Source: an uncultured Planctomycetaceae bacterium (lineage in GTDB: Bacteria; Planctomycetota; Planctomycetia; Planctomycetales; Planctomycetaceae). From it: 64,000 nucleotides of DNA. Made by a program: the position numbers and the translations under genes. The stretch is taken from assembly GCA_963813715.1 (NCBI GenBank), contig CAWFAK010000005.1, forward strand, positions 800,001 to 864,000, given 5' to 3'. This document shows positions 46,034-58,623 of this stretch, in pieces; the stretch's first letter is position 1; the number at the start of each line of letters is the position of its first letter. The notes under the pieces are model-generated. The model saw only the letters and a list, made by a program, of their open reading frames with translations. It was not told the DNA's origin and searched no databases.

Positions 46034-47095
46034 CTAGCGGTAATGGTCCAGGTTGGTGCGGAAGAAGTCGAGCGTCTGCTTGAGCCCGTCTCGCAGAGAA
46101 ACGTGCGGCTGCCAGCCCAGCGTCTGACGGATGAGGGCGTCGTCGGCGTAGAAGTCGCCAATATCGATGCGTTTGCGGTCGGCGGGGAACTCGCGTTGGA
46201 CGAACTGTCCGCCGCCGTTGACCTCGACCAGCAGCCGCGCGAGATCGACCAGCGAGGTCACCTCGCCTCCGCCCAGGTTGAAGATCTGTCCGGCGGCCTG
46301 AGGTCGCACGGCTGCCAGCAACAGCGCCTCGACGCAGTCGTCGACGTAGGTGAAGTCGCGCAGTTGTTGCCCGCCCCAGACCTCGAACGGCTTGCCCTCG
46401 AGGAGCAGGCGAATCCAAACGCCGACGAAGGTTTGCCGCGCGTCCTTGATCCGCATTCGCGGACCGTACGTATTGGTCAGCCGCAGGGCGCAGGCCGGCA
46501 ATTCGTACACGTCGTGGTACAGGCGGTGATAGAACTCCCCGGCCAGCTTATTGATGCCATTGACGTCGACGGGGCGGAGCGGATGCCGCTCGTCGACGGG
46601 GAGCCGTTCGGGCCGCCCATAAATCTGCCGCGTGCTGGCAAAGACGATCCGCACCCCCGGATTGAATTTGCGACACGTTTCCAAAATCGACAGCTGTGCG
46701 CGGCAGTTGATCTCCAAATCGGTGAAGGGATCCTCCATCGAATCGAGATGGCTCGTCTGTCCGGCCAGATTGAAGAGGAAGTCCTGCCCGGTGACGTGCG
46801 TGCGGAGACTGTAGGGATCGCGGACGTCCGAGATATTGACGCGTACCCGGTTTTCGAGCCCCTGAATGTTAAATCGGTTGCCGCCGTATTCGGGCACCAG
46901 GCTGTCGACCAGCGTGACCGTTGCGCCAGCTTCGACGAGCCGTCGCGCCAAGTTGGAGCCGATAAAGCCGAGCCCGCCCGTAATCAGGACCTTCGCCCCC
47001 GAAAAGCGGCCGGCGTCCGGTTGTGCGGCGCCGCGCTGCGTCGGGTCGGGCTGTGCGGGGCGACTTTCATTCACAAGCGGCTCGCGATCTTCCAA
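46034..47095 (-). CDS. NAD-dependent epimerase/dehydratase
   Basis: 'VLITGGLGFIGS', 'NLAG', 'RLTNTYGP', 'RDFTYVDD'; start may be GTG 47074. Confidence 0.92.
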   Translation of the reverse strand: MEDREPLVNESRPAQPDPTQRGAAQPDAGRFSGAKVLITGGLGFIGSNLARRLVEAGATVTLVDSLVPEYGGNRFNIQGLENRVRVNISDVRDPYSLRTHVTGQDFLFNLAGQTSHLDSMEDPFTDLEINCRAQLSILETCRKFNPGVRIVFASTRQIYGRPERLPVDERHPLRPVDVNGINKLAGEFYHRLYHDVYELPACALRLTNTYGPRMRIKDARQTFVGVWIRLLLEGKPFEVWGGQQLRDFTYVDDCVEALLLAAVRPQAAGQIFNLGGGEVTSLVDLARLLVEVNGGGQFVQREFPADRKRIDIGDFYADDALIRQTLGWQPHVSLRDGLKQTLDFFRTNLDHYR

Positions 47096-47112
47096 CCAGG
47101 CTCACTCTCAGA

Positions 47113-48105
47113 CTAACTCTGCGCAGGCGGCGGACCCTTCAACACGCGGCGGGCCATCGACCGCAGTCCCCGCAGGCCGATTCGCAATCGGTGTCCGGCC
47201 TCGCTCCGTCGCAATTTCTTACGAATGATGCGTTCCGATTCGCGGGCCAGTTCGGCAAACACAGGCTCTGCCGTGGCTGTCCCCGCCCGCCGGGCCAGGT
47301 CGAGGGCGAAGCCGTGTTGCTCGCGGGTCGAAGCGATCACCCAGCCGAGTAGCCAGTCTCGCGTCGAAAACTGCCCGCTGCCGTGGAACGTATTCAAATA
47401 GGTCATTTCGCCCCAGCCGGGAGCGGCCCGCAACACGGTGGACAGCAGCCCGGTCCGGCCCTCTTCGAGGCGTGCTGCCTCTTCGGGCGACACTCTCAGC
47501 GTACCACGGACGTCGAGGTCGCACAGCCAAAACTCGGGCCGATCCATAGCCGCCAAGACCGTCGACAGCTTGTCTTCCCCCTCGTAGGCGTCGATGATCC
47601 CCGGCTCAAACTCGACGGCCAGCACGCGTAGGCACAAAGCCTCGCCCAGGCTCTGAAACAGCCGGAGATCGGTCCCCTGCGAATCACTCTTGAACCAGTC
47701 GACGCGATCGACGCCGGCTTCTTGCAGGACCTTCAGCAGGCCGACACAGGGGACCCGCACGGTTCGTTCGACGTCGAAGAGTCGGGCGAAGCTCCAATGC
47801 CCCAGGGCGGCCGCGTCGGGACGCAGGCGGCTCGAGCAGTAGGGTGAGCGGGTCAGATGGAACTCGGCCTCGCTCACGTCGTCGGCTGCGGCCGCGGCGG
47901 GTACAACATGCAATCGGCGGTAGCCGGATGTCTCGGCGTGCACTGCTTCCATGGCGCGACTGTCGGGATCGAAGGCGATGCAAATCGCATACGGGGCCAG
48001 GGCCCGCCACTTGGCGTTCGTGCCGCCCGAGGCACCGACCTCGACCAATACCGGCGGCTCGGCCGTGAATTCAGGTCGCGACAGGATGCGGTCGACGAGT
48101 TCCAA
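47113..48105 (-). CDS. FkbM-like SAM methyltransferase
   Basis: 'LVEVGASGG', 'IAFDPD', 'VDWFKSDSQGTDL' (FkbM 'LK.D.QG' analogue). Confidence 0.7.
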   Translation of the reverse strand: MELVDRILSRPEFTAEPPVLVEVGASGGTNAKWRALAPYAICIAFDPDSRAMEAVHAETSGYRRLHVVPAAAAADDVSEAEFHLTRSPYCSSRLRPDAAALGHWSFARLFDVERTVRVPCVGLLKVLQEAGVDRVDWFKSDSQGTDLRLFQSLGEALCLRVLAVEFEPGIIDAYEGEDKLSTVLAAMDRPEFWLCDLDVRGTLRVSPEEAARLEEGRTGLLSTVLRAAPGWGEMTYLNTFHGSGQFSTRDWLLGWVIASTREQHGFALDLARRAGTATAEPVFAELARESERIIRKKLRRSEAGHRLRIGLRGLRSMARRVLKGPPPAQS

Positions 48106-48135
48106 GGCGGTCTCTCAGGTCGACAAGCGGATTTC

Positions 48136-48972
48136 TCAGGTCGAATCAGGACGCTCGAACAGCAGGCCCGTATCGCCGGCCTTGGCTCCGTCGACGTGAA
48201 TCGTTCCGGCCAAAGCGTCAAACTCGTCCAGCAGTCGATACGCGGGCAGAAAGTGTGCCAGCACGCGGTCGCGATTGAGAATCCACGCCGGGTAGCTGAC
48301 GGCAAAACCGTAGATCGACGGGGGCACGCTTTGCACGGTGAGTTGATCGCCGGCTTCCCAGAGAGGCGTGCGATCGAGGATCACATGGCTGAGCCGGGCC
48401 CGGGCGACCTCCTGCAACATGGCGTGCGGATCCTCCACGTAGGGGAGCACTCCCGAGAGCACCGCCACGTTCACGCTCTCGGCCGCCAGGCAGGACGACA
48501 AGTCGCGGAAAAATCGCAAATTGTCGTTCTGAAAGTGCGCGATGCCGCAGTCGACGAAGGCGGATTGCTCCACCACGTTCCACCGCAATGGTCCGACTCC
48601 CTCCAGCAATCCGCGGCACTGAAAATAGGTGCTGCCCAGGGCACCGCCGATATCCACCACATTCAACGCACCACCGTTGCAGAGGGCGGCTCGTAACAGC
48701 CCCACGACGAGCGGATACGAGTGCGCGATTTTGTCGAACCGCACCGAATCGCGTTCGTAGGCCGCTTCCCCGCGAGCGACGGCCAGCTGCGCCTGTTTGA
48801 CCCGTTCGACGATGGCCGGCACGTCGTAGCCGTCCGAGTGACGGCGGGCGTCTTCCCAGGTGTCAAAGCGTCCAGAGTAGCGCACGGCCCCGTTCGCAGC
48901 AGTTCCTGAAAGTGCCCGACGAAGGTGCGGCGGAATCCAGCCAGCCAGCCAGTGCTTCAAATCGGCTCTCAT
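48136..48972 (-). CDS. TIGR04325-like methyltransferase
   Basis: 'W..A...S.GY', 'YERDSV.F', 'VVDIGGALGSTYF', 'WNVVEQ', 'SGVLPY', 'ILDRT', 'SYP.W'. Confidence 0.8.
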   Translation of the reverse strand: MRADLKHWLAGWIPPHLRRALSGTAANGAVRYSGRFDTWEDARRHSDGYDVPAIVERVKQAQLAVARGEAAYERDSVRFDKIAHSYPLVVGLLRAALCNGGALNVVDIGGALGSTYFQCRGLLEGVGPLRWNVVEQSAFVDCGIAHFQNDNLRFFRDLSSCLAAESVNVAVLSGVLPYVEDPHAMLQEVARARLSHVILDRTPLWEAGDQLTVQSVPPSIYGFAVSYPAWILNRDRVLAHFLPAYRLLDEFDALAGTIHVDGAKAGDTGLLFERPDST

Positions 48973-49494
48973 GAAAGATCAAGGATGACCCGGCGGCGGA
49001 CGGGTTGCGAAAGGACGCGGCGCTTGGGGGAACACCCAGGAAGAGTGGCCAAAAATCTACGATAACCCGGCGGTTTTGCCCCGGCAAGCGGCCTCAGCCG
49101 ACACTGCTTTGGCCTGCTAAGCACACTGACTACCGGTTAATGACTGACCTGGTTTCGCGGCTTGGCCACCCCATGGATGTAGGTAGATTTCGCAGCTTGC
49201 GGAATTGGTGAGATTTGCGCCGTCTTATGCGTTGAAGTTGGAACTCCGAACTGTATAGTGGGCGATTCAGGTGGACTCTATCAATCAAGTTGAGTTCACC
49301 GATGAAGCGGACTTGCTGGATTGGCGAGAGCGGAAAAGGGCCGACAACGGGGGTGCTTTCGGAATCTTGGCGAATCACGGCTGGGGCACGCCGTGGTCGC
49401 CGGACATCAACAATCGTTGAGTGCAGGTCGCGCGGACACAGGCTCTAGCGTTTCCTCGAACCCACATTGCTGTTTGCTAAGGAGGGGAATTCGG

Positions 49495-50112
49495 ATGTTC
49501 AAGTCGAGATGGTTCTGCGGCCTAGCCTTAAGCGCTGGAATGGCGCTTGCGACGCACCAAGCCGTCGCGCATCACCACCACTCCCACGGTTCCTACGGGA
49601 GCTGCGGCTCCTCGGGTGGTTCGTACGGCTCTTACGGATCGTCGGGCGGCTCGCATGGCTCGCACGGTTCTAGTGGCGGCTCTTGGGGCTCGCATGGCTC
49701 CAGTGGCAGCTCGGGTGGCTCATATGGCTCTTACGGCAGCACGGGCGGCACCGTGATGACGACGAGCACTCAGTCGACCGGCACAGTGTATACCAGCACG
49801 GGTCCAACCTTTGCCGAGCCGGCGCCGATGACCGCGAGCTCGGACGCGAATGGACACCTCACGCTGACCGTGCCGGAAGACTCGATCGTCTACCTCTGCA
49901 ACCAGCCGATGACGATCGCCGGCCCGGTTCGCGAATACGTCATTCCCGGTCTAAAGCCGGGACATGAGTACCGCTACCCGGTGCGCGTGGAAGTGACGCG
50001 CGGCGGCCAGCTGTACCGCGCCACCGCCGAGCCGCGGATTCAGTCCGGGCAGCAACTGGCACTGGCGTTCGGCGATGCGATCAGCAAGACGCCGGTCGTC
50101 GTCAGCAAGTAA
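49495..50112 (+). CDS. secreted TIGR03000-domain protein with His-rich N-terminus and Gly/Ser/aromatic repeats
   Basis: RBS aaggagggg; signal peptide ending AVA; C-terminal 'LTVPEDSIVY..NQ......R.Y..PGL.PG..Y.Y.VRVE...GG'. Confidence 0.85.
   Translation: MFKSRWFCGLALSAGMALATHQAVAHHHHSHGSYGSCGSSGGSYGSYGSSGGSHGSHGSSGGSWGSHGSSGSSGGSYGSYGSTGGTVMTTSTQSTGTVYTSTGPTFAEPAPMTASSDANGHLTLTVPEDSIVYLCNQPMTIAGPVREYVIPGLKPGHEYRYPVRVEVTRGGQLYRATAEPRIQSGQQLALAFGDAISKTPVVVSK
49588..49749 (+). repeat. five degenerate 30-nt repeats encoding GS[YHW]GS[CYH]GS[ST]G
   Basis: GSYGSCGSSG GSYGSYGSSG GSHGSHGSSG GSWGSHGSSG SSG GSYGSYGSTG G; synonymous codons vary between copies. Confidence 0.9.
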
Positions 50113-50187
50113 CGCAGTCTCTCGCGCCCTCGCCCGAGTGATCGTGTGAGGCTTAGACCGCGCCAGGCTTGAGACCGTGTGAACTTG

Positions 50188-50240
50188 AAAACAGGGAAGG
50201 GAGGCTCCTGCGGGCTTCCCTTCCTTGTTTGTTTTTTTGC
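50188..50240 (+). terminator. intrinsic terminator after the TIGR03000 gene
   Basis: aaacagggaagggaggct / gggcttcccttccttgttt stem (with G-U pairs) followed by gtttttttg. Confidence 0.8.
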
Positions 50241-50336
50241 TTCAGTGATGGCTGCGCTTCGGCGCGAGTGCGTGGACCACTTGTGGTCGACTGCCTCGTC
50301 CGGGCCCACGGCGCAGGACTTGGTGAGCTCCGTCAC

Positions 50337-51209
50337 ATGTCCACAAAGCGCCTGCTTCCGCCTGCCGCTTGGCGGGCTCTGCGATCCCGCGTCATCCCGA
50401 TCGTTCGCCGTTGGTCGCGTCCGGCCGGATTTTTGCTGGTCAACCTGTGGCTGATTTACCATTTGGCGGCAATCGTGTTGGCTCCGTGGTCCGTGCCGCC
50501 GGCGTCGCGGCTCATCCAGAACTCGTGGCGGGCCGTCGGGACCTACGACCAGGCCCTGTTCTTGAATCACGGCTACCACTACTTCGCTCCGGAGCCGGGG
50601 AACAGCACGCTATTGGGCTACGTGCTCGAAATGCCCGACGGGTCGCTACAAACGGGCCGCATTCCGAACCGTCAGATCCATCCCCGGCTGCTCTATCATC
50701 GTCACTTCATGCTCACCGAATCTCTGGCGTCCGATGATTGGTCACCGCAGGTCCGCGACGAGCTGGTGCAAGCGATGGCGAGCGAGTTGTGCCGTGAGCA
50801 CGGCGCGCGGCGCGTGACTTTGTCACGCGTCAGTCACGAGTTACCGTCGATGGAGTTTGTGCGGGCCGGTGGCACGCTCGACGATCCGGAGAAGTATTCC
50901 GAGGAGCCGCTCGGACGGTTCTCATACGACGACCAGACACAAACGGCCCAACTCGAGTCGCCTGCCGGCCTGGAAGCCGAACGGGACGACACGCCTCCGC
51001 TGGCCAATGCACGCTCCGCCGACACACGACCCACATCCGCGACCGGTCCCGCCATACCGATCGAAATTGTTCCTGCACCCGATCGCGCAAATGAATTCTC
51101 CCCCGCTGGCCTCGCGCTCGCTCAGTCGGCGGATTCCGCCCGGCGTTCGCCAGCGTGCGCGGCGCGCGTGGGAAGGAGTCTGGGGGCCGTGGCGCCGCTT
51201 CTGGTTTGA
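50337..51209 (+). CDS. SdpA/DUF5819-like single-TM partner of HTTM protein
   Basis: TM 'LWLIYHLAAIVLAP', then 'Y...LFLNHGYHYFAPEP' (W/Y-x-x-FAPxP motif), 'RLLYHRHFML', 'LCREHGA..V.L'. Confidence 0.65.
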   Translation: MSTKRLLPPAAWRALRSRVIPIVRRWSRPAGFLLVNLWLIYHLAAIVLAPWSVPPASRLIQNSWRAVGTYDQALFLNHGYHYFAPEPGNSTLLGYVLEMPDGSLQTGRIPNRQIHPRLLYHRHFMLTESLASDDWSPQVRDELVQAMASELCREHGARRVTLSRVSHELPSMEFVRAGGTLDDPEKYSEEPLGRFSYDDQTQTAQLESPAGLEAERDDTPPLANARSADTRPTSATGPAIPIEIVPAPDRANEFSPAGLALAQSADSARRSPACAARVGRSLGAVAPLLV

Positions 51210-52904
51210 GCCGGCCGACCCCACGCCGCTGGCCGTGATGCGGATCCTGTTCGGCGGCATGCTGCTCTATACGCAGATCGTGTGGGGGCTCAATCTCGAG
51301 GGTTTCTTGGGTCCGCACGGCTGGCAGGGGGAGACGTTGGTGCGGACCCTGCAGGCCGATCAGTTCGCCTGGTCGTTCTGGTGGTGGGTTCCCGTCAGTC
51401 TGCACGTCACCGTGCACCTCGTTTGCCTGGTGATTCTGGCGGCCTTCATGCTCGGGGCGTTTACGCCGACGACCTCGGTGCTCGCGTACCTGATCACGAT
51501 CGCGTATGCCAACCGTGCTCCGATGGCCAATTACGGTCTCGATCAGATCAACGGCATGGCCGCCCTTTATTTGGCGATTGGTCCCAGTGGCCGCGTGCTG
51601 TCGATCGACCGGCTGCGGCAGCACCTCCGCGCGGCCCGCACGCGGCTCTCCCAAGGATTGGAGCCGGCGATCCCTCCGTCGCAGCCATCGGCACGCGCCA
51701 ACCTGGCGCTGCGGTTGATGGAAGTGCACTTGTGTGTGATCTATGTCTTCGCGTGCCTGTCGAAGCTGCAGGGCGAGAGCTGGTGGAACGGCTTGGCCAT
51801 CTGGCAAGCCGTCTCGAATCTAGAATACCAGTCGCGCGATTTGACCTGGCTGGCCTGGTACCCGTGGCTGGTCAATCTGCTCACGCACGCCACGATCGCC
51901 TGGGAAATGACGTTCTGGGCGCTCGTGTGGCGTCCCGCGCTCCGCCCGTTCGTGCTGCTCGCCGGCACCGCGATCCACCTGGGAATCGGCGCCTTCATGG
52001 GGATGTGGACCTTCGGGCTAGCGATGATCTTCGCGTACATCTCGTTTCTGCCGGGAGAACCGATGGCCGCGCTCATCGGCCGCGCGACGAGCCAAGTCGG
52101 CCGACTGCTACGGTGGCTGGGCGTCGACATGGAACCGTCCGCGCGTCCCCGCCTCCGGGCCGCCTGGTTCGCGCTCGGGCTCACGGGCGAGTCACCGCCG
52201 CCGGATCATATCGACGCACAGCCTGCCGCGGGCGCAACCCCTGCGAGCCTGCCGGTCGCCACCACGACACCGCTGGCCACCGCGACTGCGATTCCCATGC
52301 GCGAGCCTTCGTCGACGCCTCTCGATCGAGTGGCCGCGCCTGGACCTGCCGCGAACGGTCGCCGCGATTTGCCTCAGATGCGGCCGTCGATCCTGGTGGT
52401 TGAAGGCCGTTTGAAGCGGCAGGCCGAAGTGCAGGAGTATTTTCTCAAGCATGGCTTTCGCTGCCATGTCGCGTCCGAGTTACATCAGGCGCGGTCGATG
52501 CTGGCGGTCATCGAGTTCGATGCGCTGATCGTCACCTCCTCCTGGTTTCCCGAGGATGAACTGGCTGCCTTCCACGACGGCTTGATCGGCGGCGGCACGG
52601 CGCTGCCGGCGAGCGTGTTCCTGTTGGGCCCGGTCGCGGGCAGACCTTCCCGCGTTTTCCCGAGACATCCCGGCATCGCGTGCTCATCGGCAGCCTGAGC
52701 CTGCGCGAGCTGCGGCACTTGGTGCTCGAAGTGCTCGGCTTGACCGAGGAATCGTTGCGGCCGTTCGTGAACCGTCGATCGCACTCGAAAAACGGTCATC
52801 GCTCGGCGACGCCCGACCGCCCCAAACTCGCAGACGAAGACTTGCCGCCCAAGACGACGTCCGACGTGCCGTCGATCTCCAGCGGAAATGGATCTTCCCC
52901 ATGA
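51091..52904 (+). CDS. HTTM-domain (SdpB / vitamin K-dependent carboxylase-like) membrane protein with C-terminal receiver-like domain (frameshift near 52660)
   Basis: 'W.RFWF.P..PTPLA..RI..G', 'NRAP..NYGLD', 'LSID', 'LRL...HLC.IY...LSKLQG..WWNG', 'WE', 'H.GIG..MG...F'; tail ORF 52680..52904 ends in ATGA overlap with next gene. Confidence 0.82.
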
Positions 52905-54112
52905 AACGAAGTGACGCGAAACGAATTGTTGCGGATCGTGTGGGCGTCGGCTCGGTTGGCTCGGCTCGCCGTGGCAGGTTCACTTCGCGGTGGTTGCTGC
53001 CGATCGCGGTTGCTTGTGCGGCGTACGGTTGTGCGGAGTCTTCCGAATCGCCCGAAGTGCTGGTCGCGCGCGGACACCTGATGGAGAATCGCGGCAAGCT
53101 CGACGAAGCGGTGGACGCGTACACGCGGGCCTTGGCGCGGCGACCGGACGATGCCTCGCTCTATTACTACCGGGGCGTGGCCCTCGGGCGGCAGGGGCAG
53201 TGGGATGAGGCCATTGCCGACTACACCCAGGCGATCGAGCACGATGCGGCCATGGCGCGGGCCTACAACAACCGGGCGGCCGCCTACGCTCACCAGCGGC
53301 GATTCGACGCGGCGGTTGCCGATTTCACCAAGGCCATCTCGCTCGACTCGAAGAGTGCCCTCGCCTACCGCAACCGCGGTCTCGCCTATCACGACCTGGG
53401 ACAGATCACGCCCTCGATTGAAGACTACACCGTGGCCATCGGACTCGATCCCCACGATTCCCAAAGCCTCTTCGAGCGCGGCAACGTCTATCTTGACGCG
53501 GGTCAATACCCGAAGGCCATCGCCGATTTCGATCAGGCGATCGCCCTTGATCCAATGCGGGCTGCCGCCTGGCTCAATCGGGGCGAAGCGCACCGCCGCT
53601 TGGGACACACGCAGCAGTGGCAGGCCGACCTGGCCCAGGCTCGCGTGCTCGATCCGAACGGGAAGCCGAGCGAGTTGGCCGCCGCTGTTCCGGAGAAGGC
53701 GTTACTGCCCTCGCCTTTGAAATCCGCGCCAGCTGCGTCCGCGCCCGATCCGGCGCTGCGACAGGAGCGGGCGATCGCGGTCGCCTCTGCGTTCCTGCGA
53801 GATCACGGGTACAAGGTCGAAACGTCGACAGCGCCCAAGCCGTTCCCGCTCGTGGGCCGCAAGGGCGATCAGCGGATTCCCGTGCGCGTGCAAGCGACGT
53901 CCGATGGCGAGCCGCTCCGCTTTACCCGCGACGATCTCGACCAGATGGCCCACTCGGGCGATCCGACTGCGCTGATTGTCGTCGGCCAGCTCGCGTCGCC
54001 GGCATCGCCAGGTCAGCCCTTCACGGGCGGCACCGTCATCAAATTCGTCGAAAACTGGCGGACGGTTCGCGACAAGCTCGTGCCCGTCGTCTTCGAGTTT
54101 CCCCTCCGGTAA
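52901..54112 (+). CDS. TPR-repeat putative lipoprotein with C-terminal restriction-endonuclease-like fold
   Basis: Lipobox-like 'ACAAYGC'; about six TPRs ('AIADYTQAI', 'AYNNR', 'AYRNRG', 'AIADFDQAI'). Confidence 0.82.
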   Translation: MKRSDAKRIVADRVGVGSVGSARRGRFTSRWLLPIAVACAAYGCAESSESPEVLVARGHLMENRGKLDEAVDAYTRALARRPDDASLYYYRGVALGRQGQWDEAIADYTQAIEHDAAMARAYNNRAAAYAHQRRFDAAVADFTKAISLDSKSALAYRNRGLAYHDLGQITPSIEDYTVAIGLDPHDSQSLFERGNVYLDAGQYPKAIADFDQAIALDPMRAAAWLNRGEAHRRLGHTQQWQADLAQARVLDPNGKPSELAAAVPEKALLPSPLKSAPAASAPDPALRQERAIAVASAFLRDHGYKVETSTAPKPFPLVGRKGDQRIPVRVQATSDGEPLRFTRDDLDQMAHSGDPTALIVVGQLASPASPGQPFTGGTVIKFVENWRTVRDKLVPVVFEFPLR

Positions 54113-54487
54113 ATGGCGGTAAGAAACTGTCCCGCAGTAGGTTGCGAACTCGTCGCGCCCGGCGGCGGTTGCGGCGAATGGCTGGGATTTAAGGGCATGT
54201 TGCCAGGGGTCAACGCCCGGATTGCGGCAACTTTCAGGTTTCGGCCCGGCTCGAACAGACGCGACGGTCTATCGTTTTTTAAGAGATCGCGGCGTAGCGA
54301 GCCTCTGCTGGTGGTGTGTGATTCTGCAGAAGACCTCGGCGGGGACTACCCCTCCGGGGTCTCTCTGTTTCAGGCGCCGCGATGCGTGATCGCGACGCCG
54401 TGCTCGTTGCCGCTGACAGATCATTGCCGGACCCGGATCCTTTATAATTTCCGAGATCCCGATCCGAGTTCAGCGAAGACCGACGTA

Positions 54488-55552
54488 ATGCAATCCGTGC
54501 CGAGTGTGAATTCGCCTCCGCGTTCCCTGAAAGGCCGGCTCCGCCAACTGGTCGAGGACGCTCGCTGCGCGGGGCGGCTGGCGCGGGGCATGGTGCGTTA
54601 TTCGCGCACCGGAACGACGCCGTCCGACGCTTATCACAGTCTGATTCATCTGCACTGCCGCACGAATGGCCGCTCGAACGACTGGCTGCACGCGCTGGCC
54701 CGCCGCCAATTTCCGCCCGCCCCCTTGCCGCCCGCCCACGGCGTACTGGGCGACTTTAGTGCGGCCGACGTCGAACGCACCGCGGCGGAAATTCGCGAGA
54801 ACGGCTACATTCGCCCCGGCGCGCAGCTATCGGCCGACGTCTGTCAGCGTCTGACCGAGTTTTCGCTGCGGACGGAAGCCCTGCTCGCCCCGCCGCGGCC
54901 GGAAGGCCCCGCCCGCGCCGTTTACGATCCGGCCCGGCCGATTGCCGAGGGCTATCGGTTCGATGAAACGAGTCTGATCCAGCAGCCCGACATCCAGGCG
55001 CTGATGGCCGATCCGTCGCTGCTGACCGTGGCGCAAGCCTATCTGGGTTGTTTGCCCGTGCTGAGTTCGGTGTTCATGCTTTGGAGCACGCCGGCGCGGT
55101 TGGCGGACAACGCTCGCGAGGAACTCGCGCAGATGTATCACTTCGACATGGATCGGTTGAAGTGGCTGAAGTTCTTTTTCTATCTGACCGAGGTGACGTC
55201 GGACCGCGGACCGCATTGCTTCATCGCGAAGACGCATCGGCCGGGACGCCAGTTGCCCTCGCTTTTGTCGCGCGGGTACGTCCGTTATCCGGACCAGGAG
55301 CTCGAGCCCTACTATCCGGCGGCCGACCGCATCGAGCTGACGGGTCCGGCGGGGACTCTGTTTGCCGTCGATACGCGGGGCTACCACAAGGGGATTACGC
55401 CCCGCACAGGCGACCGGCTGATGTTGCAGATGGAGTTCTGCGACACACTGTTCGGCGCGCCGTACACGCGTCCGCCCTTCCCGGCGGAATGCATCCCGGA
55501 GTTGGCAGCGCGGCGCCGCGACGTCCCCCGCGTCTATTCACGCTACCAGTAG
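54488..55552 (+). CDS. phytanoyl-CoA dioxygenase (PhyH)-like Fe(II)/2OG enzyme
   Basis: 'QMYHFD' (HxD), 'LKFFFYLTEV...GPH', 'G.AGT....DT.G.HKG', 'RL'. Confidence 0.82.
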   Translation: MQSVPSVNSPPRSLKGRLRQLVEDARCAGRLARGMVRYSRTGTTPSDAYHSLIHLHCRTNGRSNDWLHALARRQFPPAPLPPAHGVLGDFSAADVERTAAEIRENGYIRPGAQLSADVCQRLTEFSLRTEALLAPPRPEGPARAVYDPARPIAEGYRFDETSLIQQPDIQALMADPSLLTVAQAYLGCLPVLSSVFMLWSTPARLADNAREELAQMYHFDMDRLKWLKFFFYLTEVTSDRGPHCFIAKTHRPGRQLPSLLSRGYVRYPDQELEPYYPAADRIELTGPAGTLFAVDTRGYHKGITPRTGDRLMLQMEFCDTLFGAPYTRPPFPAECIPELAARRRDVPRVYSRYQ

Positions 55553-55571
55553 AAGAGCCGCGGCGTTGCAG

Positions 55572-58269
55572 TCACGGGCGATTCATCATCTCGATGGCCG
55601 CCGCCAGACCTGCCCAGTAATTCGACTCGTCGATCGCAAAATAGCCGCCGGCATAGACCGACGAGCCCTCGACGATTCCTGATGTGACTGCGGGAGGGGG
55701 CGTGGGTGACGATTGGCGCGACGCCGGCGCGGAGGAGTGCCCGCCCGTGGCCGTCGGGGCTACTTTCGTCACTTTGAGCGCGATCGACGACGACGAACTG
55801 CTCAAGTTGTCGACCAGGTCTTTGGCGGTCAGCTTGATCGACGCCGCCCCCACGTACTTGGCCGTGGGCGTGTAGGTGAGTCCGTCGAGCGCGGTCATCA
55901 GGCTGCTGAGCGACCCGACGATGGTCATCGAGGCTTTGTTGTTGCCGCCGGACACAAACGACACGTTGGCCGTTGTCGCCAGGCTGAGAGTTCCATGAGC
56001 CGGCCGACAGCACCAGCTGCATGTTGCTCCCCCCCGAGGCACCGGAATCGATCAGACTGATCGCGTTTCCGATGGCGGACGAGAAGACCAGCGAGCTGTT
56101 CTCACTGAGCGTCGACGAGCCGGGGACCGAGAACGCAGGCGGCCCGTTTACGGTGACGTTGACGGTCGCCGACCCGGTGAGCTGATTGCCGACGTCCTTC
56201 AGCAGCAGGGTGAAGGCTGTTGCCCCGACGTAGCCGGACGTGGGCGTGAAAACCAGCCCATTGAGCGCCGTATTGAGCTTTGCCAGCGTGCCCGAGACGG
56301 TGACTGCTGCCGAGTTGTTGGCCCCCGAAAGGACTTTGAGCCCGCTCATCGTGGAAAACTTGACCTTGCCGTGCGTCGCCGTGATGGTCAACTGCTCGGC
56401 ACTCGTGCCGGCCGCCACGTCAGCCACGGTGATCGGATCCCCCTTGGCCGCCGAGAACGTGAGCGTCGTGTTTCTGTTCACCGCGGCCGATGCCGGGGCG
56501 CTCACCGTCGGCGGGTGATTCACCGTGATCGCGACGGAGTGCGAGGCCGAGAGGCTGTCGCCGGGATCGCTGAGCGAAATTGCCAACGAATCGGCTCCGC
56601 TATACCCGGAGTTTGGCGCGTAGACGAGCCCGCTGACTGCGCCGTTCAAGTTGCTAAGCGTGCCGCTGACCGTGATCGAGGACGAGTCATTCGCCCCGGA
56701 CGTGATCGTCAGCCCGCTGAGCGAGGCCAAAGTCAGCGTGCCATCACTTGCCGAGAGCGTGAGCGAATCGCTGCCGGTCCCCGCCTGGGCATCGGTCAGG
56801 CTGATCGCGTCGTTGCCGGCCGACGAGAACGTGATCGATCCGTTCTCCGTGACCGTGGTCGACACCGGCCCGCTGATGCTGGGAGGCGTTGGGGGCGGCG
56901 GCTGCGACGTCCCGTACCCGGCCAGTGCGGGAACCAGCAGATTGGCGATCGGCGTGCCGAGGCCGGTGACCAGGTCGTAGCCGGGTCCCGCGTTGTACGT
57001 GCCGTTGCCACCAGTCGTCACGTCGTGGAAGTCGGAGGCGGACAGGTTGTAGAGCGCGGGGAGCGTTTGCGAGGGGCCGTCGAGGGTTCCCTCGCCCTGG
57101 AGCGCGCGGCCCTGATCGGCGATCGCCACCAGTCCCGCGAACATCGGGCTGGCAAGGCTGGTGCCGCCGACCTGGAACCAGCCGCCGGAGAACGAGTCGA
57201 GCACGTACACGCCCGTGTTGGGGTCGGCGTCCATCGCGACGTCCGGAACGGTCCGATGCGTCGTGCTGAGGCCGTTGACTTTGCCGACCTGGTAGCTGGG
57301 CTGCGATTCGAGCTGGCTGATGCCGCCGCCCGTGTCGGACCAGGCGCTTTCGCCCAGGTAATCTCCGCTCGAATCGATCGAGAGCGAGGTGCCGCCCACC
57401 GCGACGACATTGGGAGACAGGGCCGGATAGTCGGCCGGCGTCCCGTCGTCGCCGGTGCTGGCGGTGAACGTCACCCCCTGGTGTCCCGCGGGAGTGGTGA
57501 AAACCGAGTCGATGCTCTGCTCGCCGGAGAACTCGCCGCCGCCCCAGCTCATCGAGACGACCGACACGCCCGTCGTGTCGGCGGCCGTGCTCACCGCGGT
57601 CAGCAAGTCGTTGTACGAATTCGAGTTGGCCTCGAAGAGGATGATGTTCGCTTGGGGCGCGATCGAATGGGCCCACTCGACGTCGAGCGATTCTTCGATG
57701 TCCCAACCGTCGGTGCTGGAGTTTGCGGGCAGCGAGGTGCCGCCGTTCTCGTTGACAACTTTGAATGTCGGGCCGCCACTGACGTTGAACTGCTGCAAGC
57801 CGAACTGGGTATTGAACGTGCCGGCATCGGTGACGATGTCCGGATCGTTGTAAGCGTCGACGATGGCAATCGTCTGGCCCGCGCCGTTGCCGGTCACGCC
57901 GCCGAACGAAATCTGGTTGACCCCGTAGGCCTGCTGCATCTGGGCCGGGTCAATCGGACCCGAGTTGGCGGGCGTCACGTTGGGCGACGCGCCGTGGCTG
58001 GAGCCGGAGGCGATGTTGGCCCGCCCTTCCAGCACGTAGCTGGGGGTAGCGAACGAGGCACTCAGCAGCAGGCGGTCCTCGAGGGACTCAAATGCCCCCG
58101 CAAAGGCCACCTGCTGCCAGACGCCGGCAGCCCCAGGCCGCCGACGAGCACCCCGGTTCCCGCTGCGCGAGCCATGCGACCCTGCGTTTGGTTCGGGATT
58201 TGCGGATCGGGCTGACGTTCTCGATCGCAGATTCGCTAGTGCGCCGGCAATCCCGTTGGAGAGCACCAT
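55572..58269 (-). CDS. extracellular S53 (sedolisin-like) peptidase with planctomycete N-terminal signature and cadherin/Ig-like repeats (frameshift near 56000)
   Basis: 'FESLEDRLLLS'; 'GAGQTIAIVDAY', 'EESLDVEW', 'STGDDG', 'VPDV', 'GGTSLASP', 'GYDLVTGLGTP'; three repeats ending '(L)NxAxxGLx(Y/F)xP..Y.G'. Confidence 0.88.
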
Positions 58270-58623
58270 GCAGCCACTCCTCGTGCAGAGTCGGAAGCGT
58301 CGCCTCTGCAAGCCTAGGTCATGCCACGGGTGCGGCAATTCACGAGATGTGGGAAAAGCGGGTCTTACGCCGTTGTATTTCGGCAACGTTGGTCCGGGTA
58401 TTTCGGCTTGTTTGGGTAGTCCGGAGCGTTCGGAGCAATCGGATTTTTCCAGGACGCTCGTCATAGACGGCCTTGTCCCAACTCGTGTTTTTCATTAAGT
58501 TTCCCGCCCGCAGCCGCGGTCCCCGACGTCCCACACGCCGCGGCCAAACCCTTCGAGACCCACCCCCTCCTCTCCTTTTCCAGAGACCTTCTCGCAGTCG
58601 ATTCGTCAGGCAAGGAAGCCGAC

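Follow-up and report, generated by a model that had tools for sequence, protein, structure and literature searches.

A conserved Planctomycetaceae gene cassette combines a GGCX-like HTTM protein, a second accessory family, and a candidate repeat-protein substrate

Introduction

Ever since the first description of the family, the role of the bacterial HTTM proteins, homologs of vitamin K-dependent carboxylase, has been a standing question. In Bacillus subtilis, SdpA and SdpB mature the precursor of the SdpC toxin; one operon encodes this precursor, which is exported by Sec, along with the HTTM protein SdpB and the small accessory protein SdpA, and their action is presumed to lie outside the cytoplasm. 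SDP maturation and linaridin dehydration both implicate bacterial HTTM proteins, with the chemistry unexplained. Here we describe a cassette of four genes (g1–g4), all on the + strand at positions 49495–54112 of a 64,000-nt stretch from an uncultured Planctomycetaceae bacterium (assembly GCA_963813715.1, contig CAWFAK010000005.1, positions 800,001–864,000; hereafter the window), which encode a small secreted repeat protein, an accessory protein with a single transmembrane (TM) helix, an HTTM membrane protein, and a tetratricopeptide repeat (TPR) protein. An earlier note on this DNA, made from the sequence alone, had described these four co-oriented genes, all of which are present, and had read g2 and g3 as an SdpA/SdpB-like pair that matures g1. 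The pairing of an accessory protein with an HTTM protein is already known; new here are a second, large accessory family (g2), with an architecture like that of DUF5819, and a recognizable, protein-sized class of potential substrate whose gene adjoins g2 in most loci.

Three further systems come close. One preprint predicts that the helix and domain of a DUF5819 protein pack on an adjacent HTTM protein in place of the GGCX helix and clamp domain, making a split DUF5819–HTTM carboxylase that is so far a structure prediction, with MloH as the fused form of bacterial carboxylase (bioRxiv 10.64898/2026.08.19.745780). MloH is the HTTM carboxylase of malonomycin biosynthesis (bioRxiv 10.64898/2026.08.19.745780, PMC12647623), and linaridin clusters encode an HTTM protein (LinG/CrdG) along with LinE and LinL, the HTTM protein being suspected of Thr/Ser dehydration (PMC9927463). 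A literature search on HTTM proteins of Planctomycetota found no paper, and broader ones on HTTM and SdpB returned mostly unrelated work.

The planctomycete cassette shares with SdpABC its kinds of parts and their presumed site of action, whereas its substrate gene comes first, its candidate substrate is a long low-complexity repeat protein rather than a compact toxin precursor, and no immunity or signaling genes were seen among the open reading frames (ORFs) inspected, which were not searched systematically. As in linaridin clusters, the gene of an HTTM protein adjoins that of a Ser- or Thr-rich ribosomal precursor; the linaridin clusters, however, are mostly actinobacterial and their precursors are short leader–core peptides, whereas the precursor here has a Sec signal peptide. 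MloH is likewise an HTTM enzyme with a region equivalent to an accessory domain and carboxylates a non-Glu carbon acid, but it is fused rather than split and its substrate is a polyketide–peptide intermediate, whereas this locus has no biosynthetic gene cluster.

Conservation of the gene neighborhood

The arrangement of the cassette recurs in dozens of genera and is far from chance. Of 151 genomes sampled from this family, 64 (in 41 of 92 genera) contain g2, 80 the HTTM part of g3 (E ≤ 1e-10), and 52 TIGR03000, the C-terminal domain of g1. We scored 71 g2 loci including the window (all loci of the family sample and two from a sister family) with hidden Markov models (HMMs) built from our own alignments, and an HTTM gene lay directly downstream of g2 on the same strand at 68 of them. 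Two of the remaining three are cut by contig ends, and the third belongs to a complete genome (G063) that splits the cassette between two sites (L016 and L017), with g1, g2, and the TPR gene at one and g1 with the HTTM gene at the other. Directly upstream of g2, a Gly/Ser-rich repeat protein or TIGR03000 protein was encoded on the same strand at 49/64 or 49/65 evaluable loci, according to which of two composition rules was applied, and 34 of these 49 proteins carry the TIGR03000 domain. The second rule was passed by none of 4412 other stop-free segments taken from these loci. At 14 loci neither rule gave a positive, and one of the 14 (L009) shows repeats by eye.

A second set, made up of the best 80 of 413 loci from species-representative genomes and partly drawn from the same genomes as the first, had the HTTM gene downstream at 77 loci, the other three being cut, and a repeat or TIGR03000 gene upstream at 70 of the 76 evaluable loci. 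Across a phylum sample of 401 genomes, TIGR03000 searches (E ≤ 1e-5) returned ten matches in eight genomes, nine of them just upstream of a g2 match, and the g2 profile was found in at least nine genomes, an underestimate, with eight candidates scored per genome. Named Pirellulaceae proteins and records labeled Isosphaeraceae or Pirellulales also carry g2 relatives; the cassette is conserved mainly in Planctomycetaceae. The adjacency of TIGR03000 and HTTM genes, on which the earlier note had rested its substrate link, is strongly conserved in both locus sets and in the phylum sample. Because related genomes are not independent, these locus counts describe conservation and are not a statistical test.

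Several records (L124, L132, L140, L148, L149, and others) place the cassette under Candidatus Kuenenia or Chitinophaga labels, which look doubtful because the cassette is otherwise confined to Planctomycetaceae and their neighbors.

The HTTM protein and human GGCX

The g3 protein comprises an HTTM/GGCX-like membrane domain at approximately residues 25–340, a linker, and a receiver-like C-terminal domain. When its AlphaFold2 (AF2) model (pLDDT 89, pTM 0.85) was compared with the PDB using Foldseek, the top 16 matches were all human GGCX (E from 1e-6; TMq 0.51–0.57 for the first 15), and re-alignment (VIA) gave a Z of 20.9 and a root-mean-square deviation of 3.7 Å over 278–285 residues, with the next unrelated chain at a Z of 6.9. 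The alignment pairs residues 25–370 of the model with only residues 42–335 of GGCX, so the lumenal C-terminal domain that clamps the substrate of GGCX is missing from the g3 model.

At about 16% identity to GGCX, g3 was mapped onto it by two chained pairwise alignments through a paralog from the host genome (18 contigs, 7.49 Mb, estimated completeness 82.6%), which aligns weakly to GGCX (E 0.054) and to g3 at E 5e-14 (Table 1). K225, W231/W232, E272, H296, and F308 are invariant in all 24 aligned sequences, and equivalents of GGCX Lys218, Asp263 (as Glu), His287, and Phe299 are thereby kept; the roles of the mapped residues in GGCX are taken from PMC12647623. The earlier note had compared the GGCX motif YFIAGVKKL with IYVFACLSKL of g3, and the former does appear in the paralog alignment and map to the latter. 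The Glu-binding Asn159/His160 of GGCX map to Gln152/Ile153 of g3, in a region where the alignment is weak. In the model, g3 folds like the GGCX membrane domain and keeps the equivalent of the catalytic Lys218, in agreement with the homology that the earlier note had asserted.

Nineteen of the 24 aligned relatives of g3 (approximately 50% identity, picked partly by their HTTM flag) match Pfam HTTM, with a best E of 3.8e-12, and g3 is not among the four PF05090 matches in the host genome. Against the SdpB model (TIGR04033), g3 gave a partial match of 24.7 bits (E 1.5e-5), far under the cut-off of 178.4, and the proposed equivalence to SdpB is not supported at the level of family membership. A sequence search of the PDB with the HTTM profile returned no match at E ≤ 10.

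Four further HTTM-family genes, on contigs C17, C12, C8, and C7 (L172–L175), are present in the host genome, all matching Pfam HTTM. The receiver-like domain fused to g3 (ILVVEG...FDALIVTS...RVLIGSLSLRELRHLV; approximately 52450–52760 of the window), which sets g3 apart from GGCX, has no Pfam match and appears only in the window's genus, a query with this domain at 1e-5 having matched a single locus (L042). HTTM proteins of other lineages carry different C-terminal extensions, a long one in the case of the g1–HTTM site of G063.

The accessory protein

The g2 protein consists of an N-terminal TM helix and a predicted extracytoplasmic domain of about 150 aa, seen in its AF2 model (pLDDT 84.8) as a long helix at residues 9–51 followed by an alpha/beta domain. 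A HYFAPEPG motif is invariant in the g2 alignments, as are, among other residues, four His and the motifs NHGYHYFAPEPG and PRLLYHRHFM, and the earlier description of a single-TM FAPxP protein stands. With 1447 clusters at 50% identity (E ≤ 0.001), this is a large family. A database look-up with g2 returned only hypothetical proteins of Planctomycetota, none of the listed family members carried a Pfam flag, and Pfam and NCBIfam scans of g2 gave no match. Fusions of g2 with the HTTM protein, suspected from long open frames, proved on ORF inspection to be separate genes.

Among 37 more distant members of the g2 family, one matched DUF5819 at 15.9 bits (E 0.02). No protein of the 401 phylum genomes matched DUF5819 above cut-off; the two best, sub-threshold matches are TM-anchored proteins encoded directly upstream of HTTM genes and have a FAPEP-type motif, and the g2 profile aligned to them with hhalign probabilities of 59.8% and 26.9%. 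A bridge from g2 to DUF5819 through relatives of one family protein (P0356) was not obtained, as none of the 120 listed carried a Pfam flag. Overall, g2 resembles DUF5819 in its architecture and in its place immediately before an HTTM gene, its sequence gives weak signals to DUF5819 and SdpA, and by analogy our working reading is that g2 may work like DUF5819.

The g2–g3 pair resembles the DUF5819–HTTM pairs in that a small protein, made up of an N-terminal TM helix plus an approximately 150-aa domain, is encoded directly upstream of the HTTM gene. The Lys189, Trp195, and Phe273 that the preprint names in HTTM compare with K225, W231, and F308 of g3, and their spacing is alike, with Trp six residues and Phe approximately 84 residues after Lys. 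Unlike those pairs, g2 falls short of the DUF5819 model, the g3 cassette is without a DCC1-like domain, and the pair is accompanied by genes for a candidate protein substrate and for a TPR protein.

The repeat protein

The hydrophobic N-terminus of g1 ends in AVA, giving a signal peptide at approximately residues 1–25, and is followed by about 60 residues (approximately 26–85) of GS[Y/H/W]GS repeats without a single Asp or Glu. The protein contains the His-rich stretch HHHHSH, and His runs also occur in g1-type proteins of other loci. TIGR03000 (plancto_dom_1, NCBIfam) matches residues 121–189 at 40.1 bits (E 2.6e-10; cut-off 43.1), and a search of the host genome gave 41.7 bits at 849855–850064 of contig C5, the only TIGR03000 match in its 7.49 Mb. 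A custom HMM built from the fetched loci scores the same domain at 84.9 bits; with TIGR03000 itself, the ortholog from another genome of the genus (G062) reaches 55.9 bits and many orthologs 50–80 bits. A database look-up with the TIGR03000 part returned only Planctomycetota hypothetical proteins, and the literature library searched held no paper on the domain.

The proteins encoded upstream of g2 share a plan in which a signal peptide, often ending ...EA|G, is followed by GS[Y/H/W]GS-type blocks almost free of Asp and Glu, with Arg/His-rich spacers (such as RRxHRRxHG in many homologs) between them. At 34 loci the repeats lead into a linker rich in Pro and Ala, behind which come one or two TIGR03000 domains, and at 15 loci the protein consists of repeats only, often ending ...GSYGGSY; many g1-type proteins are 200–420 aa long. 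Because TIGR03000 proteins located elsewhere in the same genomes have the same repeat plan and 15 loci are repeat-only, the repeat region is the constant feature. Judged from these sequences, the constant partner of the cassette is the Gly/Ser/aromatic repeat region, and TIGR03000 appears as a frequent C-terminal add-on. The target proposed earlier, a TIGR03000 protein, therefore holds as an upstream secreted partner but not as a constant TIGR03000 feature, given the repeat-only loci and the loci without such a gene.

The TPR protein and the intergenic hairpin

Pfam assigns TPR_1 (E 7.6e-44) and TPR_2 (E 1.4e-38) to g4, with four to five stretches each, whereas the lipoprotein status claimed for it is only a candidate feature, as the possible lipobox (...AAYGC) was read by eye. 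NCBIfam near-matches to PilW, Tgl, and NlpI fall far short of the respective cut-offs. At 26/68 loci the HTTM gene is followed by a co-oriented TPR gene. Two loci (L058 and L060) have HTTM and TPR in one stop-free frame (640 and 614 aa), apparently as fusion proteins, and the C-terminal third of g4 (53770–54109) is a non-TPR domain of about 110 aa that is conserved at a few loci (L041, L042, L057, and L064).

Between g1 and g2 lies a terminator-like hairpin with a 19-pair stem and a T-run (−32.3 kcal/mol, z −4.6), which none of 200 shuffled sequences equaled, and a hairpin-like feature occurs at 38/48 loci versus 9/48 on the antisense strand. The hairpin fits a substrate gene that is expressed above its enzyme genes.

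Proposed mechanism

Given that the genes stay linked, that g3 folds like GGCX, and that its catalytic residues are conserved, we infer a g2–g3 complex, its topology, its relation to the substrate, and the chemistry outlined below. On balance, we lean towards a reading in which g2 and g3 together form a split enzyme, dependent on quinol and facing the periplasm, which acts on the g1 repeat protein by modifying or processing it with the aid of the TPR protein. The sequence of g1 predicts export by the Sec pathway. The g2 and g3 proteins would form a two-subunit membrane enzyme equivalent to a split vitamin K-dependent carboxylase, in which g3 would be the quinol-binding membrane core with its Lys base and g2 would replace the lumenal substrate-holding domain that g3 lacks. 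This enzyme would use menaquinol and O2 to modify or process the g1 repeats at the periplasmic face, while the coupled TPR protein may hold or escort the unfolded substrate and the hairpin after g1 would keep expression of the substrate gene above that of the enzyme genes. All parts of the cassette should face the periplasm, to judge from the signal peptide, the positive-inside rule, and the topology of GGCX. The split cassette of G063, in which g1 is kept at each half, fits parts acting in trans on g1-type proteins.

Candidate chemistries include proton abstraction on Gly or Ser (carboxylation, dehydration, or epimerization), oxidation or cross-linking of Tyr or His, and SDP-like cleavage at the basic spacers. 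The repeats of the candidate substrate are free of Glu and Asp, and this, along with the loss of Asn159/His160, argues against classical Glu carboxylation. By analogy with the linaridin HTTM protein and MloH, proton-abstraction chemistry on non-Glu residues is suggested, which Ser/Gly-rich, acid-free repeats would fit. A more specific version, which we rate as unlikely, has the g2–HTTM pair act as a menaquinol/O2-driven "strong base" enzyme that abstracts alpha-protons from Gly or Ser of the GS[Y/H/W]GS repeats, yielding aminomalonate (alpha-carboxyglycine), dehydroalanine-derived cross-links, or D-residues. Conserved linkage and the GGCX-like g3 partly support the earlier proposal that the pair acts on a secreted protein outside the cytoplasm, although modification and cleavage, both named in that proposal, are not distinguished.

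Several results weigh against a split carboxylase-like enzyme acting on g1. The g2 model has no relative among solved structures (best Foldseek E 0.05, best VIA Z 4.2). The SdpA/DUF5819 membership proposed earlier for g2 is not supported by the family models: DUF5819 (PF19136, cut-off 27.1 bits) found nothing at g2 at E ≤ 10 and matched 0/41 members of its family, while SdpA (TIGR04034) found nothing at g2 or in the host genome at E ≤ 10 and matched 1/41 family members, at an E of 0.12 only. Pfam HTTM (PF05090) does not match g3 at E ≤ 10, and Asn159/His160 were mapped onto g3 through a weak two-step pairwise alignment. At 13–14 loci the g2–HTTM pair has no repeat gene upstream, and in the family sample 16 of the 44 TIGR03000 matches that pass the cut-off (counted by hand, some of the 16 on short contigs) adjoin neither g2 nor HTTM. 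The hairpin is equally consistent with g1 being transcribed on its own.

Alternative explanations

The alternative that survives best, although we consider it unlikely, is that g1 is a structural protein of the envelope or surface (matrix, adhesive, or metal-binding) and that g2, the HTTM protein, and the TPR protein serve its export, anchoring, or assembly without covalent change, or act on envelope lipid or quinone. The composition of g1 recalls low-complexity structural and adhesive proteins in general, with His-rich stretches in the window and elsewhere, TPR lipoproteins often function in envelope assembly, where the near-matches of g4 also point, and the hairpin would suit a highly expressed structural gene. 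The Lys, acid, His, and Phe of the GGCX catalytic set in 24/24 relatives point instead to retained quinol chemistry, and the known HTTM cases described in these sources all concern peptide or small-molecule maturation (bioRxiv 10.64898/2026.08.19.745780, PMC12647623, PMC9927463).

We regard as improbable that the cassette makes an antimicrobial or signaling peptide in the manner of SdpABC or the linaridins, with g1 as a precursor whose cleavage at the basic spacers would release peptides rich in Gly, Ser, Tyr, and His. The three kinds of parts are those of sdpABC, basic spacers separate the repeat blocks in many homologs, and peptide operons typically have such a hairpin behind the gene of the precursor. 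However, neither immunity gene, ABC exporter, nor protease was seen among the ORFs inspected in the window and the other loci, a survey short of a systematic search; many g1-type proteins, with their one or two folded TIGR03000 domains, are unlike short precursors; the SdpB model score is low; and unlinked paralogs of the repeat protein occur in the same genomes. Shared ancestry of the neighborhood within one family, without shared function, is highly improbable as the source of the adjacency: nearly all carriers do belong to one family and its neighbors, their genomes are non-independent samples, and a terminator-like hairpin parts g1 from g2, but the genes retain their order and orientation in at least 41 genera with identity down to 35%–50%, the flanks vary between loci (the window's next gene downstream, g5, and upstream methyltransferases are not conserved), and each half of the split cassette in G063 retains its own g1-type gene.

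Under the favored reading of g2 and g3 as an enzyme acting on g1, a poorly understood bacterial enzyme family gains a testable candidate protein substrate, and the orphan TIGR03000 domain gains a context. Public records include two cultured carriers, Maioricimonas sp. JC845 and Tautonia sp. JC769, and with a recognizable neighboring substrate in cultured organisms, a single mass-spectrometry comparison could reveal the action of the enzyme. If the alpha-proton abstraction proposed above were true, g1-type proteins would give the bacterial relatives of vitamin K-dependent carboxylase their first class of protein-sized substrates, and the cassette would provide a new way to harden or functionalize envelope material.

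Gene boundaries and feature coordinates

As written, g2 and g3 overlap by 118 nt, and the g3 frame stops short of the g4 start. The overlap arises from one base missing after 51088, where all three covering public runs (X1, X2, and X3; Logan contigs aligned to the stretch) have an extra G. With this base, g2 ends ...DRAK-stop and its stop shares an ATGA with the start of the HTTM gene, in keeping with its close relatives, which stop at ...APDRAK after 252–257 aa, whereas the window's g2 runs on for 38 residues in the alignment. Likewise, Logan contigs of 4/4 public runs have a single additional base at 52633/52634, and with it g3 becomes a 604-aa protein like that of a relative (P0001); full-length g3 relatives are approximately 604 aa long and continue in the frame of a small ORF at 52680–52904, and the continuation encodes the last part of the receiver-like domain, followed by a tail with GNGSSP at its end.

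Since other runs contain the extra bases, the 118-nt overlap and the early g3 stop are assembly errors or strain variants, the evidence being contigs of other runs rather than the reads of the host assembly itself. Programmed frameshifting at both breaks was ruled out for the same reason. As written, the ATGA at 52901–52904 links the g4 start to the out-of-frame tail; once both bases are restored, the g2 stop/g3 start and the g3 stop/g4 start are each an ATGA. The claimed overlap of the HTTM gene with g2 thus survives as the ATGA found in relatives and other runs, not as the 118-nt overlap, and the claimed ATGA junction with the TPR gene holds only with the g3 frame restored. The strong ribosome-binding site described before g1 is present (Table 1). 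A second long-contig genome of the genus (G125) has the same g3 break, at a G-run (P0002), which suggests that the gaps are systematic homopolymer errors in these assemblies. The stretch is present in soil and rhizosphere runs of 19 studies, including some RNA libraries, whose contigs are no proof of transcription.

Table 1. Features of the cassette in window coordinates, and g3 residues equated with GGCX residues
Feature	Position	Strand	Basis
Shine-Dalgarno-like AGGAGG, 9 nt 5' of the g1 ATG	49480..49485	+	Sequence read
g1, secreted repeat protein, 205 aa	49495..50112	+	ORF, TIGR03000 match, homologous architecture in dozens of loci
g1 His/Gly/Ser/Tyr/Trp low-complexity repeats, proposed enzyme target	49570..49749	+	Translation
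TIGR03000 domain of g1	49855..50064	+	Profile match, custom HMM
Intrinsic-terminator-like hairpin between g1 and g2	50189..50240	+	Pattern scan, fold energy
g2 as written, 290 aa	50337..51209	+	Alignments, AF2 model
g2 true end (252 aa); 51090–51209 is out-of-frame read-on	~51093	+	Extra G in runs X1, X2, X3
g3 as written, 535 aa, HTTM/GGCX-like	51091..52698	+	Homologs, model, GGCX fold match
g3 continuation, next frame	52635..52904	+	Frame translations, 604-aa P0001, extra base in four runs
g4, TPR protein, 403 aa	52901..54112	+	Pfam TPR_1
Equivalent of GGCX Lys218	g3 K225		Chained alignments
Equivalent of GGCX Asp263	g3 E272		Chained alignments
Equivalent of GGCX His287	g3 H296		Chained alignments
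Equivalent of GGCX Phe299	g3 F308		Chained alignments
Beside GGCX Trp223 (one residue off)	g3 W231/W232		Chained alignments

Neighboring genes

The sugar- and methyl-modifying genes upstream of the cassette are not conserved with it, nor was either downstream ORF conserved beside it in the loci checked. On the minus strand at 46034–48972, the upstream group comprises a NAD-dependent epimerase-like ORF, an FkbM-family methyltransferase, and a TIGR04325 methyltransferase (198.7 bits). Downstream, positions 54113–55552 (+) hold an ORF with a weak PhyH-like dioxygenase match (21.9 bits, cut-off 22), and positions 55543–58464 (−) encode a 973-aa ORF resembling a secreted serine peptidase with repeat domains.

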